Shown: in pieces, positions 6,001 through 15,000 of the stretch
Layout of the letters: each line of letters begins with the position of its first letter
Numbering within the stretch: position 1 is the stretch's first letter
NCBI GenBank assembly: GCA_041946735.1
Contig: JBHGAY010000021.1
Span: 30,505 to 94,504, forward strand
Reading direction: 5' to 3'
Source of the DNA: Candidatus Eiseniibacteriota bacterium
GTDB lineage: Bacteria > Eisenbacteria > RBG-16-71-46 > CAIMUX01 > VGJL01
Length of the DNA stretch: 64,000 nt
Made by a program: the position numbers

Positions 6001-9000
6001 GCACTGGGCCTCGAGGTGCGTCCATGCTCGGTCCGCGGGAAACGCCGGCGTCCGGCCCCCCGATGCGGCACGAACGACGACGGCGGGACCGCTGAGCAGG
6101 AAGAGCAGGCACAACAGCAAGCATCGCCGGCCGAGCAGGCAGGACCGCGGGACTTCGCGCAGCGACCGGCGGGCCTTTCGCCCGGCCGCCGGCGTCCTCG
6201 CGCTCCCTCGTTGGTTCGGCTGCTCCATCCGTCGCCCTCCGCCTTTCTCCCACCGGCAGCCGGCTTGTCGCTCCCCCGTCAGAAGTTGAAGGCCGCCGAG
6301 ACCGTGATGCTGATGTAGCGCGCGGTGTTCGTCTTGTTCTTTTTGTCGCTGTCCTGTCCGAGGGTCAGGCCGGCGTTGCCGGTGATGCTGCTCGTGAAGT
6401 TGTAGCTGCCGGTCGTCGACAGGGCGTACTTCGCGATGTCCCGCGTGACGACGAGGTTTCCGCCCTGCCCGCTCTCCAGCCGATTGTCCTGATAGTCGAG
6501 GGCGAGCGAGAGATCGAGCTTGGAGGTCGCGCGCGACTGCTTCTTGGTGATCGGGTTCGTCACCACCCGCGTGAGGCTCAAGGTCTTGCGAAGGGTAAGC
6601 CCGACCTGGCGGCTTCGATCGCGCGTGAGGCTCCGCACGTTGCCGAACTGCTCCGACTCCCTCGAGGAGTAGGACGAGGTGAGCTTCGCCGAGATGCCGT
6701 TCTTGAGCGTCGCATCGAGGTTCAGCAGCGGCCGGAGATTCACGGTCGTTTCGGTGCGGTCCTTGGGGTTCGCGCTCGTTCCAACCTCCCGGGTCTCCCT
6801 GGTGTATCGGGAGCTGGCACGCAGGTCTTTCATGAGCGCCTGGAGTCCGAGCTTCTGGCCAAGCCTCCCCCAGTTGACGTCGAGGTCGGGGAACCGCCTC
6901 GTCCGCGTCGTCGTCGCCGCCCCGTTGACCGAGTTCTTGTTGAAGCCGTAAGCGTAGGACGTCCGGACCTGGATCTCCGACAGGAGCTTCAGATCGGTCG
7001 AGAGATTCAGGTCGCGCCGATTCCCCTGGGAGGAGTTGAACCCGTTGAGCTTCTCGACGCGCGCACCCGGGTCGCGGCTGAAGCCGAGCTGATAGGAGAG
7101 CGACGGCTCTCCCGAGACCCGATCGCTTCGGTCGGTCTTGCCGATCGTGTAGGTCGTGGAGATAGCCCCGAGCGAGAAGATCGAGGATCCCGACGACCCG
7201 CCGCCGCGCGGAGCCCGTGGAGGCGGAGGAGCCTCGCCGGTCGAGTCGCCGGGCGCAGGCGCAGGCGCGTCGCCTCCTCCATCCCCGCCGCCGCCGCGCG
7301 CGATGCCGCCCAAGGCGCGCATCCATCGGTCGATCGGCAGCGAGCCGCTCAACGTCAGCGTGTTGGAGTTGCCGAAGCCGTTCGATCGTTGCTGCGCCCC
7401 CAGTCCACTGGAGGTGATGGAGTTGAACCGGCCGTCGAACGATCCGCTCCACGAAACGCGCGGCACGAGACTCTTGCCGAACAGAGGGATGGCCTGGCTC
7501 GCGGTCAGCTGGTGCCGCCGCGAGACCTCGGTTCCCAGCCGCAACCCGAAGACCCGTTTCGGCGCCGTCGGCAAGCGCAGATCGCGCGTCTGGTCGAACT
7601 GGTAGGTGATCGCCTCGATCGGCCTGAGACCGGTCGACCAGTTCATCGTGCCGTTGCGGGTGACGAGCCGGCGCGTCTCTTCGTAAGGCAGATCCAGGTC
7701 GTTGTCGGGGCGCCGGTACTCGATCCGCTTGTTCCATCCCCCCGTGAGGATCGTCTGGATGTTCGTTGGCATCAGACGGAGCTGCGTGTTCCGGTAGACG
7801 CGGATCGGAGGGCCACCGCCGAGCGGAAGCGCGTAGCTGATCGAGCCCGAGCGGGTCATCACGGTGTCGCGGCTCTCGGGCGTATTCGATATGTTGCTCG
7901 ACAGATTCCCTGAAAGGCTGATGCGGTCGATCGTGTACTTGAGGATCGGATTCGCCGACGGAGACCGGGAGACGCTGAACTGCATGTCCCGGGACCGCGT
8001 CTCCGTAATGTTCTCGTCGCGCGCCTCGCCGGAGAGCACGAGGTCGCTGTTCGTCCGGAACTTCGGGACGTCCTTGGTCTGCGCCAGGTTCAGGCTGACG
8101 GGAAGCACGATGCCGCTCCCCTCCAGGAAACGGTCGACGTTGATCCGGGCGCCCGTGTTGAGGCTCGACCGGGTCACTCCGCTCCCCCGATCGCTGCCGA
8201 TCTTCAGGAAGTCGGCGTCGGTCCGCTGGAAGCCAAAGTTCATGTCTCCGAGGCCGGCGAGGCCCAGGTTCATCGAGAACCGGCTGGCAAGGCCGGTATC
8301 GCGCTTGACCGACGCGAGGCGCAGCTCGTCGATCCAGACGTTGCCCGAAACGATCGTCGAAGGCCCCCGGCTGATGACGCCGAACGCGATCCGGCGGACC
8401 GACGTGAGGCTCGGGTTCCCCTTGAGCGAGATCGAAGCGCCGTTGCCGAGATCCCGGAATGCGACCAGGTTGCTGTCCGCCTGAAGATGGAGTTGCGACA
8501 GCATTCCCATGTCCACGGAGTGCAGGACCCATCCGTCGGTCACGGGAGCGCGGTACTCGTAGTAGTTGTCCTGATCGGAGTCGGCGTTCCGGGCGAAGCG
8601 GACGAAGAAGTCGAGATCGACCGGCACCTCCTCCCTCAGCCTTCGTTTCACGTAGAACTCGAGCTTTCGATAGAGGCTCGCGAAGTCCTGCGCGGCCGAG
8701 AACGTCCGGAAGACCGTCCCCGAGTGGCCGGGCGGGAAGTTGCGCATCTCGAGCGTCAGCGATTGCTCCCGCTCCTCGACGTCCTGGCGCTCGTCGGGCT
8801 TGAACGGGGGGTCGTACTCGGAGGTGGAATTGTCCTTGTTGTTGAGCACCGCCGGGAAGAAGTCCTCGCCGGGGAACAAGGAGGAGTCGGGTAGCGCGAC
8901 GCCTAGCGAGTCCCGCACGCCTCCCTTCAGCCACCGGTTTCCGGTGATCTCGATCCCACCGATCTGGAGGTAGGCCTCGCTTCGGAATCCCTCGACCCAG

Positions 9001-12000: not shown

Positions 12001-15000
12001 CGGAAGGCGCGCCGGGTCATGCCGTCCACGTACGCCCCCATGTCCTGCCAGACCGGGGTGCGGACCGGCACGCCGCCGGCCGAGTAGGTCTCGAGCACCC
12101 GGGAGGAATCGAGCTGGACGGAGACCTGGCGGGTGACGAGCTCGCGCTGCTCCCGTCTCTTCAGGTTCGCGGGAGGGAGCCAGCCAAGGCCGAGGCTGTC
12201 CTGGAGGAAGATGAAGTCCTCCAGGTACTCCGAACTGACGCCCAGCGAGTCCTCCCGCGCCCGCAGATTCTCTGGAAGCTCGCCGGAGCGGCGCAGGACG
12301 GCCCGCGCGCGGTAGCGGGAGGCGAGGCGGTAGAGGAGCGGATCGTCGTCGAAGCTCGACCGGGCGGCTCGATCCCATAGCCCGACGTACGCGTCCTCCC
12401 CCTCTCCGTGAAGAGGCGGCGCGAAGACGACGAAAACCGTCGTCCAGAGGAGGATCAGGGCTGGCCAGGCCTTGCGACGGAACACGAAACGCTCATGATG
12501 GTGATGGTTTCGAGAGCAGACGGGGCGCCTCCCCACCTCTTCCGGGGCGGTTATACTCCGGCCCTGACACTCAGGGTCCCGGCCCCGATGGGGCAGGGGT
12601 CCATCGGATTACACACGGAGGGTCGTTTGGCGTCAAGACGCCGCCTGGTCCCGTTCGGGATCCTCTCGCGGTACATCGCTCGGCAGCTCGTCAAACCGTT
12701 CCTCCTGGGATTCTCCGTCGTCACGTTCCTCCTCACCCTGGACTTCCTTCTCGACTACCTGAACCTGTTCCTCGGCAAAGGCATCTCCATCTGGACCGTC
12801 TCGAAGCTCTTCGTCCTCGGCCTCGGCTGGATGGTGGCGCTCTCCGTCCCCTGCGGGGTGCTCGTCGCCGTCCTGATGGCCTACGGCCAGATGAGCCAGG
12901 ACAACGAGATCACAGCGATGCGGGCGAGCGGCATCAACCTGATCGCCGCGATGGTCCCTTCCTTCCTCATGGCGGGAACGATCGCCGTCGGGCTCACGGC
13001 ATTCAACAACTATGTCCTGCCCGAGTCGAACCACGCCTTCGCGAACCTCGTGGCGCAGATCCACCGGGTGCGACCGACCGCGCAAATCCGCGAGGGGGTG
13101 TTCCTCGACGAGTTCGAGGGGTATGACCTCTTCATCGGCCGCCTGAACGACCGCACCGGCGAGATGAAGGACGTGCTGATCGTCGACGCGTCGGAGAACC
13201 GGCGGTTTCCGCGCACCATCGTCGCAAAGGAGGGAGATCTCTCCTTCGTCCCCGGCACCTCGACGCTCGTCCTGACCCTCCGCAACGGGGAGATCCACGA
13301 GCTGGACCCCGACGCCCGGGAGGCACGCTACCGCCGCCTCGCCTTCGAGGAGCAGACGATGCAGCTCCAGGGCGCATCGGACGCGTTGCAGGGGGTCCGG
13401 CGCGGTCGCGGCCAGCGCGAGATGTCGGTCGGAGCGATGCGACAGGAGATTCGCCGGCTCGAGGAGGAGCGTGACAGCTACGAGGCCCAGGTCGATTCGT
13501 CGCTCTCGGCCCTCGGGGTCTCCAGCCCGGAGCAGCTTCCTCCGCTCTCGCCCGAGGAGCGGCAGCCGAAGGGGATCACGAAGATCCTCGCCCCCCTCGC
13601 CGCCCTCTTCGGCGGGCGCCGACCGCCGCCGGCGCCGGCCGAGGACCTCGATCCGGAGCTGAGGCGCCAGATCGAGGAGCTGCGGATGCGCGTGCTCCAG
13701 AGGGAGTCGGTGGAGAAGCGGATCGACTCCTTTCGAGTCGAGATCCAGAAGAAGTTCTCGATCCCGTTCGCCTGCCTCGTCTTCGTGCTGGTCGGCGCGC
13801 CGCTCGGCATGCGGGCCCGCCGCGGGGGGCTGGCGGTCGGATTCCTCTCCGTCGCCTTCTTCCTCTTCTATTACCTCTGCCTGATCGGAGGCGAGCAGCT
13901 CGCCGATCGTGGCCTGCTCTCCCCCTGGCTCGCCATGTGGATTCCGAACTTCGTCCTCGGCGGCCTGGGCCTCCGTGAGACGGTGCGGGTCGCCACGACC
14001 GGCTTTGCGGTTTCCGCATCGCGCAAGGTGCGGCGGCAATGAAGAAGCTCGATCGGTACCTGCTGCACGACTTTCTTCTCTACAGCCTGATGGGCGTCCT
14101 GCTCTTCGTCGGGATCTTCGTGATCGTCGACCTCTTCGAGAAGATCGACACGTTCGTCGACAACAAGGCGGGGTTCAGCACCGTCGTTCGCTACTACGCC
14201 TGGAACGTGCCGGTCCTCCTCATCCAGATCGTGCCGCTCGCCGTCCTGCTCGGATCGATCCTCTCGCTCGGTCAGATGCGCCGCTTCAACGAGCTGACCG
14301 CCATGCAGGGCGCCGGGATCTCGCCGCTCCGGATCGCGACGCCGCTCCTTGCCGCCGCATTGTTGATCGCCGGCTTCGACTACGGGCTTGGCGAATGGAT
14401 CGTCCCCCAAGCGTACCGCCAGCAGCAGAAGATCCTGCGCGTGGATATCAAGGGGCAGGAGCCGCTCGAAACGGCGGGAAGGATGAACATCCGCTACCTG
14501 GGACGGGGCGGCAACCTCTACACGATCGAGTTCTTCGACGGCGCCACGGGGAGCCTGCGGAACGTGTCGGTCCAGAGCCTGGCGGAGAACGGGATCCGGC
14601 GGAGGATCGACGCGGAGGCAGCGCGCTATCGCGACGGTCTCTGGCGTTTCGAGAAGGGGACGCTTCGCGCCTTCGGCGACTCGAGCGAAACGACGATCCG
14701 CTTCCGCAACTATGGCACGTCGAGCCTCCCGGAGAAGCCCCGCGACTTCCTCCGGCCGGAGGAGAGCCTCTTCGAGATGAACATGCGGGAGCTGCGCGCG
14801 TACGCCGACCGCATCCGATCGAGCGGAGGGCGCGACGTCAAGATCCGCGTCGACTACCAGCTGCGCGTGTCGTTCCCGCTCGCGACGGTGATCATGGTCC
14901 TGCTCGGCGCCTCGCTGTCGCTGCGCATCGTGCGAGGAGGGAGCGTGGCGCTCGGCATCGGGGCGACCGTCTTCGTGGGGTTCGCCTACTATGCGATGCT

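Follow-up and report, generated by a model that had tools for sequence, protein, structure and literature searches.

A type IX secretion gene set in which the GldLM motor and GldKN ring are undetectable, in Eisenbacteria and other FCB lineages outside Bacteroidia

Introduction

The closest described relatives of the system reported here are the type IX secretion systems (T9SS) of Bacteroidia, namely Gld/Spr of F. johnsoniae and Por of P. gingivalis. Motor and ring are both needed for secretion in Bacteroidia, as stated for the motor in the accessible part of PMC5790014, and the motor literature, as represented by the available text of bioRxiv 10.1101/2022.01.28.478170, takes both T9SS and GldLM to be confined to Bacteroidetes. 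The TXSScan/MacSyFinder model of T9SS (Abby et al. 2016, PMC4793230) draws on the same families (GldJ, K, L, M, N; SprA, E, T; PorU, V, Q). In the accessible portion of its description T9SS is restricted to Bacteroidetes, where 60 of 97 genomes have it; partial matches from other clades may figure in its supplementary tables. The F. succinogenes peptides detected by mass spectrometry do not cover the C-terminal domain, a pattern from which the authors infer T9SS-type cleavage (Raut et al. 2019, PMC6851124); in the part of that text available to us GldK, GldL, SprA and PorU each have 0 mentions and the machinery genes are not listed.

The Eisenbacteria genome analysed here (G000) shares with the Bacteroidia systems the translocon SprA/Sov, the PorV/PorQ barrels, a C25-type sortase PorU with its own C-terminal sorting domain (CTD), PorX, and type A CTDs on many secreted enzymes. 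It differs from them in that PorL, M, K and N (GldL, M, K and N) are undetected: all that is seen of the GldLM/PorLM 5:2 proton motor and the GldKN/PorKN ring is the general FGE-sulfatase fold of GldK/PorK, in unrelated lipoproteins.

Results

The window, i.e., the whole 64-kb stretch of DNA analysed (contig C14:30505-94504 of a genome of 4.89 Mb in 72 contigs, 94.78% complete), carries sprA/sov, the gene of the T9SS outer-membrane translocon, at 6279..12485 on the minus strand. The longest ORF, 6279..12536(-), encodes a full-length SprA/Sov translocon of 2085 aa; a start at 12485, which is residue 18 of this ORF, leaves 2068 aa and yields on inspection of the translation the signal-peptide-like N-terminus MFRRKAWPALILLWTTVFVVFAPPLHG. 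The score of 493.9 bits against NCBIfam TIGR04189 (cut-off 200) bears out the survey's finding that this ORF is SprA, and it is accompanied by a score of 69.6 bits against Pfam SprA_N and by a phmmer match in 4 stretches to the solved SprA of F. johnsoniae (6h3i, E 1.8e-43). Homologues are found at 32-64% identity, and those bearing names are SprA of Candidatus Eisenbacteria. The 27 first codons (12405..12485, minus strand) read as a predicted signal peptide, with a basic N-terminus and a hydrophobic core, then ...PPLHG. Outer-membrane barrels end in residues of the ...SAAFNF type, and on this basis the C-terminal strand ...ITVSAAFNF (6282..6311, minus strand), read from the translation, appears to be a β-signal-like barrel end. 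The conserved motif G-S-x2-V-x11-D-Y-x-[IV]-D-Y-x2-G (10396..10469, minus strand) is near-invariant across 112 Eisenbacteria-type SprA sequences and identical in F. johnsoniae SprA; it served as a probe for other phyla, and 118 of 120 matches to it among genome contigs also give a tblastn match to the SprA described here.

The divergent neighbours of sprA are lptF and lptG, encoding LPS export permeases (12408..15118, plus strand; Pfam LptF_LptG, 282 and 285 bits), and downstream lies the rimP-nusA-infB operon (579..5336, minus strand; Pfam RimP_N, NusA_N, IF-2); we take both only as context. As these genes flank sprA, no motor or ring gene does, and a Pfam analysis of the flanking genes revealed no motor-like or ring gene next to it. 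The sole cargo gene within the window, listed as C14:69437-69670 by the genome-wide scan, encodes a small protein of 189 aa with a type A CTD (38924..39493, minus strand; TIGR04183 26.3 bits, cut-off 23). A window ORF also scores as BamG-like, under the cut-off.

Our survey of components covered SprA, PorU, PorV/PorQ, PorX, GldK/L/M/N and CTDs, with SprE/PorW, PorT, PorP, PorE, PorZ and Plug outside its scope. Whole-genome profile searches recovered PorU (NF033707, 596 bits, cut-off 420), PorX (NF052313, 650.7 bits, cut-off 300) and 14 matches to the PorV/PorQ family NF033709, 8 of them over cut-off, so that the PorU, the PorX and the eight PorV/PorQ paralogues named by the survey all stand. 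Matches to the C25 portion of NF033707 were PorU itself and 8 other places, and a phmmer search with the corresponding region of PorU found 3. The roughly 240 CTD proteins claimed previously came to 234 of 3535 crude gene calls with our own iterated HMM, seeded with the tail of PorU, and to at least 144 places over cut-off with TIGR04183 (144 of the 150 scored, out of 205 candidates in the whole genome). Together the 234 proteins sum to 195,815 aa and spread over 54 contigs; a hydrophobic N-terminal segment is found in 160 of them, compared to 902 of 2789 other proteins. The T9SS genes are dispersed among housekeeping genes, and there is no motor-like gene beside porU-porV.

One could argue that SprA, the PorV-like barrels and the CTDs serve another purpose, e.g., outer-membrane biogenesis or surface-layer anchoring, and that the tagged proteins exit otherwise. 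The adjacency of sprA to lptF/lptG, the sub-threshold BamG-like score of the window ORF and the fact that a T9SS in Eisenbacteria is predicted from genes would all agree with this. Yet SprA, the PorV family, PorU and CTDs co-occur as they do in Bacteroidia, PorU has a CTD itself, the 234 CTD proteins are enriched in N-terminal export signals, and in F. succinogenes the mature surface enzymes are devoid of the CTD, according to the accessible text of PMC6851124. We therefore consider a role other than secretion very improbable.

The motor and the ring are undetectable in this genome by every sequence test applied. Six-frame profile searches gave 0 matches at E<=10 to GldM (TIGR03517), GldL (TIGR03513), GldL_N (Pfam PF22827) and GldN (TIGR03523), and GldK (TIGR03525) produced generic FGE-sulfatase matches only, the best of them scoring 79.2 bits where the cut-off is 350. 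This best match is a PKD and FGE-sulfatase lipoprotein that scores higher with human FGE (107 bits) than with PorK (40 bits). In 6 of 23 genomes the same pipeline recovered GldK, L, M and N, all over cut-off, five being named Bacteroidia isolates and the sixth a genome whose SprA falls inside Bacteroidales, and in 6/6 of these Bacteroidia-type controls gldK-L-M-N are arranged as operons. Thus the earlier statement that GldL, GldM, GldN and a true GldK are missing is upheld, and its caveat that only GldM had a positive control has been removed for all four families.

With the genome 94.78% complete and split into 72 contigs, gldKLMN, a single operon, could sit in one gap, or it could escape six-frame HMMs on high-GC DNA. 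In a sample of 151 Eisenbacteria genomes, which includes G000 and the unpublished G015 and of which 118 are >=90% complete, SprA is over cut-off in 138 (147 at E<=0.001), while GldM and GldL are each over cut-off in 0/151, indicating that the motor-less pattern is neither a peculiarity of one genome nor an assembly gap. As all four genes were recovered in the 6/6 controls and SprA, PorU, PorV and the CTDs were recovered from the very same DNA, an artefact of this kind is hardly credible.

Beyond Eisenbacteria, GldM is over cut-off in 0/201 genomes of the Fibrobacterota sample, SprA being over cut-off in 5/5 Fibrobacterota genomes tested, and in 0/201 of the Gemmatimonadota sample. None of GldK, L, M and N is over cut-off in the remaining 17 of the 23 genomes, and 13 of these 17 have a clear SprA: a Fibrobacteraceae genome, 2 Cloacimonadota, a Kryptoniota, 4 Gemmatimonadota (including Ca. 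Carthagonibacter), a Chloroherpetonaceae, 1 Eisenbacteria and 3 unlabelled or unclassified. Among 251 GTDB-Bacteroidota genomes SprA is found in 199, GldM in 62, and SprA without GldM in 138. Completeness figures belong to the Eisenbacteria sample, none being attached to the genomes of other phyla. Since GldM is over cut-off in 0/151, 0/201, 0/201 and 0/13 genomes, and 138 of 199 SprA-bearing GTDB-Bacteroidota lack it, a T9SS gene set devoid of motor and ring is, judged by gene content, the rule for SprA-bearing FCB lineages outside Bacteroidia. The survey's suggestion of a like make-up in other FCB lineages is thereby substantiated in Fibrobacterota, Gemmatimonadota, Cloacimonadota, Kryptoniota, Chloroherpetonaceae and many non-Bacteroidia GTDB-Bacteroidota. 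The literature searched yielded no paper stating this distribution.

Could the motor be hidden? The main rival to the reading we favour below holds that an inner-membrane, proton-driven energiser is present but escapes the family models, being either highly diverged from GldL/GldM or of separate descent; a different outer-membrane adaptor may then stand in for the GldKN ring. PorX binds PorL in P. gingivalis and is retained here at 651 bits; the secretion of Bacteroidia requires a motor, and HMMs are blind to a very diverged or non-homologous one. Against it stand the 0 matches at E<=10 to GldL, GldM and GldL_N in G000, and PF22827 is over cut-off in 0/5 other motor-less genomes, 2/5 giving noise matches of about 12 bits. 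The genome has just three MotA/ExbB-family stators, a TolQR-like pair, ExbB-ExbD-ExbD-TonB and MotA, all in ordinary Tol, Ton and Mot contexts and none near T9SS genes. Three architecture scans sought gene pairs in which a bitopic protein comes after a 2-TM protein; relying on a hydropathy rule applied to crude gene calls, and blind to separated genes, they gave 7, 1 and 9 pairs, some recurring, i.e., 15 distinct pairs. Nine are unrelated families (Pfam, 12/15 distinct pairs scanned); among the other six, two were read by eye as an anti-sigma factor and as an outer-membrane barrel, a third has a PorV paralogue as its upstream protein, a fourth has a downstream ORF that looks spurious, and two were set aside: C34:121146-123363, which Pfam does not match, and C16:67983-68468, a likewise unmatched protein of 161 aa that precedes a GDSL lipase. 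The crude scans and the stator survey thus found neither a GldLM-like pair nor a spare stator in G000, and we regard a hidden energiser as unlikely, though a serious contender.

The SprA tree (43 rows, 585 columns, midpoint root only) groups phyla in accord with taxonomy. The 5/5 verified GldM-positive rows lie in one 17-row clade (SH-aLRT 100) that holds every row named Bacteroidia in the GTDB sense, and 24 verified GldM-negative rows fall outside it, implying a single change of GldM state. The apparent restriction of the motor to one SprA clade fits a later addition. The GldM-negative lineage nearest to Bacteroidia (G176, G396, G186, G265) may be Rhodothermia, for which gldKLMN has been reported. 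The unrooted tree alone does not set polarity, and a gain requires a root outside Bacteroidia; hence, of the proposal that motor and ring are a Bacteroidia addition, the confinement to one clade holds, whereas the direction depends on rooting. The single-branch change would also suit a GldKLMN ancestral to the FCB group, with motor and ring lost many times and remnants of the system left outside Bacteroidia. However, the midpoint root or any non-Bacteroidia root demands about seven losses versus one gain, 151 Eisenbacteria, 201 Fibrobacterota and 201 Gemmatimonadota show no trace of motor genes, and the supposed losers keep an intact SprA (138/151) and very large cargo sets, and so we give repeated loss little credence.

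Discussion

We propose, with a probability of about 0.6, that the system is a reduced T9SS whose SprA-PorV-PorU core is the older part and has descended vertically, and that a single acquisition on the Bacteroidia stem brought in the GldLM proton motor and the GldKN ring. G000 keeps the outer-membrane half, i.e., SprA, eight PorV/PorQ-family barrels, PorU and PorX, along with some 234 CTD cargo proteins. Cargo would pass the inner membrane via Sec, its C-terminal domain would be bound at SprA/PorV, and a PorV-type shuttle would accompany its exit via the SprA barrel, whereupon PorU would remove the tag and anchor the protein on the surface. Direction and release may come from shuttle binding and irreversible cleavage and anchoring, or from an unrecognised energy source, rather than from GldLM; in Bacteroidia the same motor also powers gliding. 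If this is true, the motor and the ring are a later Bacteroidia addition to an older SprA-PorV-PorU core.

Judged by its accessible description, the TXSScan model would count gene sets like that of G000 as 'no T9SS' (PMC4793230). A close parallel outside Bacteroidota is F. succinogenes, also of the FCB group, which makes surface enzymes with a C-terminal TIGR04183-type domain that the mature proteins lack; it differs in being cultured and in having proteomic support, whereas the Eisenbacteria system is known from its genes (PMC6851124, in the part available). The Fibrobacterota as sampled here show the same pattern, SprA in 5/5 tested and GldM in 0/201. Compared to F. johnsoniae, the SprA described here falls about 320 residues short of the solved protein (2403 aa), and the cargo is larger, 234 proteins versus the 40 of type A given in the available text of PMC9127263.

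Results

The translocon gene of the window and its surroundings

The longest open reading frame of sprA lies on the minus strand of the window at 6279..12536 and encodes 2085 aa. An in-frame start at 12485, 17 codons inside this frame, would give the protein an N-terminus resembling a signal peptide, and its C-terminus, ...SAAFNF, reads as that of a predicted outer-membrane barrel. The protein scores 493.9 bits on TIGR04189, the NCBIfam equivalog for SprA/Sov (cut-off 200), and 69.6 bits on Pfam SprA_N, and four collinear stretches of it align with the structure of Flavobacterium johnsoniae SprA (6h3i_A; query 218-1503 against chain 128-1610, E 1.8e-43), the final 580 residues being unaligned to that chain. 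By these scores the frame is predicted to encode a member of the SprA/Sov translocon family. Its nearest relatives share 32-64% identity, those that carry a name being 'cell surface protein SprA' of Candidatus Eisenbacteria; the best 120 protein matches are all of the Eisenbacteria type, and other phyla are absent among the matches listed.

The gene is flanked by rimP-nusA-infB and by the divergent lptF-lptG, with accBC also nearby, and no motor- or ring-like gene was seen among these neighbours in a Pfam view of the flanking genes. Between the sprA stop and rimP (window 5160-6278) there is a gap of about 1.1 kb with no high-GC3 ORF and no tRNA, an unusual length of non-coding DNA for this genome; a terminator-like hairpin is at 5156-5135 (minus strand). 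Further along, at window 24738-26225 on the plus strand, a 495-aa barrel scores 31 bits with the PorV family (cut-off 90) and 55.5 bits with BamG (cut-off 250). As its BamG score exceeds its PorV-family score, we rejected it as a PorV shuttle and regard it as FadL/BamG-like.

The type IX secretion genes of the genome

The assembly (4.89 Mb in 72 contigs, 94.78% complete), in which the window occupies G000:C14:30505-94504, was searched in its entirety with six-frame HMM searches, which bear out the survey's finding that SprA is accompanied by PorU, PorX and eight PorV/PorQ proteins. PorU scores 596 bits (cut-off 420) and carries a C25 peptidase domain (Peptidase_C25) and a C-terminal sorting domain (CTD) of its own; around porU-porV lie RNase R, PilZ, PAP2, accA and an M23 peptidase, no motor-like gene being seen among them. 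Eight proteins exceed the cut-off of the PorV/PorQ subfamily model, and the only one of the eight scored on the equivalog models, the paralogue adjacent to porU, falls below their cut-offs (PorV2 157 vs 325, PorQ 54.5 vs 220, PorV 25 vs 250). PorX, at G000:C1:90272-92014 (L303:1207-2949, minus strand), scores 650.7 bits (cut-off 300). In P. gingivalis PorL is the partner of PorX; here PorX is kept while PorL is absent.

The cargo is abundant. Of the 150 places scored with the CTD model TIGR04183, 144 exceed its cut-off, and an HMM of our own, seeded with the PorU tail and iterated over the C-termini of 3535 crude gene calls, converged on 234 proteins, close to the about 240 that had been claimed. 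These proteins (median 750 aa, total 195,815 aa) lie on 54 contigs and take up ~12% of the genome. A hydrophobic segment at the N-terminus is present in 160 of the 234, compared with 902 of 2789 other proteins. At G000:C4:about 64700-79141 a 4443-aa open frame with a terminal CTD has a PorV/PorQ-family barrel immediately after it, the two forming a cargo-plus-private-barrel pair.

Motor and ring genes

The claimed lack of GldK, GldL, GldM and GldN withstood deeper searching. Over the entire assembly, the models for the motor proteins GldM (TIGR03517) and GldL (TIGR03513, and Pfam GldL_N, PF22827) and for the ring protein GldN (TIGR03523) gave no match at E<=10, and the best match to the ring protein GldK (TIGR03525) reached 79.2 bits vs a cut-off of 350, the matches to that model being generic FGE-sulfatase proteins, while the four TIGR models found their targets in six of six positive controls. 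The most GldK-like layout in the genome belongs to a 542-aa lipoprotein with PKD and FGE-sulfatase domains. It was rejected as a ring protein, since it scores 107 bits to structures of the human formylglycine-generating enzyme vs 40 to PorK and is thus an ordinary member of the FGE-sulfatase fold.

The gene set could be served by a diverged or unrelated energiser missed by the family models, and we searched the genome for one. Three stators of the MotA/ExbB family are encoded, namely a TolQR-like pair that adjoins a TolC-HlyD-ABC set, an ExbB-ExbD-ExbD-TonB cluster, and a MotA that adjoins CheX, and none of the three is close to any T9SS gene. The MotA (G000:C20:1941-2936, MotA_N and MotA_ExbB) has no MotB called adjacent to it. 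Three hydropathy scans for a GldL-like gene of two or three transmembrane segments followed by a bitopic gene, run on crude gene calls (longest ORF, GC3 >0.76) that could miss pairs, yielded 7, 1 and 9 pairs, some of them recurring, so that 15 were distinct. Twelve of these 15 were scanned with Pfam and nine of the twelve are unrelated families: LapA/LapB, FG-GAP cargo twice (once after DoxX), a DUF5683/PEGA protein before an fn3 protein, PBP/TPR, PGA_cap/heparinase, GGDEF/histidine kinase, PEMT/exonuclease and a propeller cargo. Two candidates without a Pfam match were read by eye, the one on contig C29 as an anti-sigma factor and the one on C45 as an outer-membrane barrel. The pair at C34:121146-123363 has no Pfam match, and that at C16:67983-68468 consists of a 161-aa protein without a Pfam match and a GDSL lipase; both were merely set aside. 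By these crude scans no GldLM-like pair is evident among the 15, most of which resolved to unrelated families. A concealed motor is the main rival of the motor-less reading; the stators and the resolved pairs speak against it.

Weak GldL matches in the further genomes G163, G054, G112 and G122 were rejected as coiled-coil or low-complexity proteins without a transmembrane hairpin, or as unrelated long proteins, and Pfam GldL_N gave noise only (~12 bits) in five motor-less genomes.

Positive controls and other lineages

As a standard set of 14 control genomes includes no T9SS, controls were sought with a SprA motif. The motif, G-S-x2-V-x11-D-Y-x-[IV]-D-Y-x2-G, was derived from an alignment that took in F. 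johnsoniae SprA as well as 112 Eisenbacteria sequences, back-translated and scanned across species-representative genomes. At least 120 loci were found; 118 of the 120 listed have a tblastn match to the SprA of the window, nine of these matches spanning just 35-93 residues round the motif. Of the genomes behind the listed loci, 23 were searched with the GldK, GldL, GldM and GldN models. All four were over cut-off in six of them (the named Bacteroidia isolates Algoriphagus, Mucilaginibacter, Anaerophaga, Paraprevotella and Lewinella, plus an unlabelled genome whose SprA is placed inside Bacteroidales), where the genes form one gldK-L-M-N operon, and none of the four was over cut-off in the remaining 17. 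A clear SprA is present in 13 of those 17: one of Fibrobacteraceae, two of Cloacimonadota, one of Kryptoniota, four of Gemmatimonadota (including Ca. Carthagonibacter), one of Chloroherpetonaceae, one of Eisenbacteria and three unlabelled or unclassified. The other four (one labelled Ignavibacteria, two Bipolaricaulota, one unlabelled) have a short SprA match only and are for that reason uninformative on the absence of the motor.

The nine loci with short matches (L141, L181, L203, L207, L189, L237, L227, L144 and L198) are labelled Bipolaricaulota, Bacillota/Firmicutes, Chthonomonas or Ignavibacteria, one being unlabelled. They match over 35-93 residues only (about 670-760 of the protein), in an open stretch of 608-984 aa in the six of nine that are readable, and may represent a SprA-like domain that proteins of another kind employ outside the FCB superphylum. 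SprA-like sequence also occurs at loci L162, with an alignment of 976 residues, and L253, labelled Oribacterium and Lachnospiraceae; these contigs are probably mis-binned Bacteroidales. Two Cloacimonadota genomes, G157 and G158, have 14 and 10 sub-cut-off matches to the GldK model. These are FGE-sulfatase-type proteins, several of which sit together on a single contig, and they belong to a large paralogous family.

The larger samples agree. Among 151 Eisenbacteria genomes, including the present one and the unpublished G015 and comprising 118 of high quality, 138 have SprA over cut-off and 147 have a match to it at E<=0.001, among them 116 of the 118. GldM is over cut-off in none of the 151, with noise of at most 14.8 bits in nine, and neither is GldL, three genomes having matches of at most 26.5 bits that are coiled-coil proteins. 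Neither the Fibrobacterota sample nor the Gemmatimonadota sample, of 201 genomes each, yielded a GldM, and SprA is over cut-off in all five Fibrobacterota genomes tested; SprA of this type has E-values of around 1e-46 to 1e-124 in the present pipeline.

In 251 genomes of the GTDB phylum Bacteroidota, counted with no regard to kinship, SprA is present in 199, GldM in 62 and both in 61, leaving 138 with SprA and without GldM. Along the handles of this sample (G174-G421) a GldM-positive genome occurs every four to six, an even spacing that suggests a sample stratified by group. A recurring set of 2.1-2.8-Mb genomes in it has no SprA whatever, one genome (G399) has GldM and no SprA at E<=1e-60, and two (G176 and G181) have a SprA of ~2600 bits and no GldM candidate.

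The SprA tree

A tree of 43 SprA sequences was built over a 650-residue core (585 columns; quick IQ-TREE, LG+G4; midpoint root only). It took in 28 of the 80 pattern-scan loci with full flanks, to which three Eisenbacteria loci, one Fibrobacterota genome and ten GldM-negative genomes of the Bacteroidota sample were added. The 52 loci left off are mostly further Bacteroidia MAGs, together with eight short-match loci and some shorter fragments; L280 and L289 were dropped for having no BLAST match to the SprA core.

One side of the tree (SH-aLRT 98) holds Eisenbacteria, Fibrobacterota, Gemmatimonadota and Cloacimonadota and the other (SH-aLRT 99) GTDB-Bacteroidota. That SprA follows taxonomy in this way argues for its vertical descent. 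Within the second side a ladder of GldM-negative rows (the Kryptoniota group, the Chloroherpetonaceae group and others) leads to one clade of 17 (SH-aLRT 100). This clade takes in each row that bears the name Bacteroidia, Flavobacteriia, Cytophagia, Sphingobacteriia, Chitinophagia or Saprospiria, and the five rows verified as GldM-positive all fall in it. The GldM state (five rows positive, 24 negative, 14 without a state) changes once on the tree. Wherever the root is put outside the Bacteroidia clade, a single gain suffices vs about seven losses; the tree itself is only midpoint-rooted, and the sister lineage of Bacteroidia on it is GldM-negative and unlabelled.

Discussion

The finding that this genome lacks the canonical motor and ring genes stands up; it is general and has good controls. 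Many FCB phyla share the translocon, a candidate shuttle, the sortase and the sorting tag, while the known motor and ring occur in a single class. As far as genomes can carry the point, T9SS gene sets that lack the canonical motor and ring are the rule outside Bacteroidia. The survey had gone further, proposing that the motor and ring are a Bacteroidia addition to a simpler SprA-PorV-PorU machine. The gene distribution and the single change on the tree favour this proposal, with a direction that depends on a midpoint root, and read most simply the motor-less gene set would be the older state. We consider, at roughly one chance in three, that type IX secretion started out as a system of the outer membrane alone, made up of SprA, PorV-type shuttles and PorU, that exports folded, tagged proteins from the periplasm without inner-membrane power; that it would persist in this form in most FCB phyla, including Eisenbacteria with their more than 200 cargo proteins; and that the GldLM rotary motor and the GldKN ring would be a late Bacteroidia add-on that came with gliding.

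If this outer-membrane origin is true, the energy-requiring step of the textbook T9SS would be dispensable for transport itself. A working reduced set would mean that nature has itself done away with the motor, and the role of energy, be it in transport itself, in release from the shuttle or in gliding only, becomes testable in cultured motor-less organisms such as Fibrobacter succinogenes, Gemmatimonas, Ignavibacterium and Chloroherpeton. If a hidden motor is present instead, these same genomes are the place to seek envelope-spanning motors of a new family. As regards annotation, a genome recorded as lacking a T9SS may still give a tenth of its coding capacity to T9SS cargo.

Passages of several reviews assign the T9SS to the FCB superphylum with no parts list there (PMC11205867, PMC9127263, PMC8754138, PMC12398890), and BLAST hints at it in Chlorobi, Fibrobacteres and Ignavibacteriae are mentioned in one report (PMC5837995). 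A proteome study of F. succinogenes, in the part that bears on this, infers processing of the T9SS type and leaves the machinery genes unnamed (PMC6851124). The TXSScan survey, as its account of the system has it, used a model including GldJKLMN and found the T9SS in 60 of 97 Bacteroidetes genomes and in no other clade (PMC4793230), and statements in papers on the motor hold the T9SS and GldLM to be specific to Bacteroidetes (bioRxiv 10.1101/2022.01.28.478170; PMC5790014). Because surveys defined the system by its motor and ring, they reported it only in Bacteroidetes. In the literature searched by full text, supplements aside, we found no statement that SprA, PorU, PorV and cargo occur without GldKLMN.

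Compared with the T9SS as defined in Bacteroidia and by TXSScan, the genome has SprA, PorU and CTD cargo and has neither the GldL/GldM motor nor the GldK/GldN ring. Current models treat the GldLM/PorLM proton motor and the GldKN/PorKN ring as central to the system, and the present data weight the parts oppositely. What these genomes encode is a variant of the known T9SS, and one of high value to the field if the reduced machine secretes.
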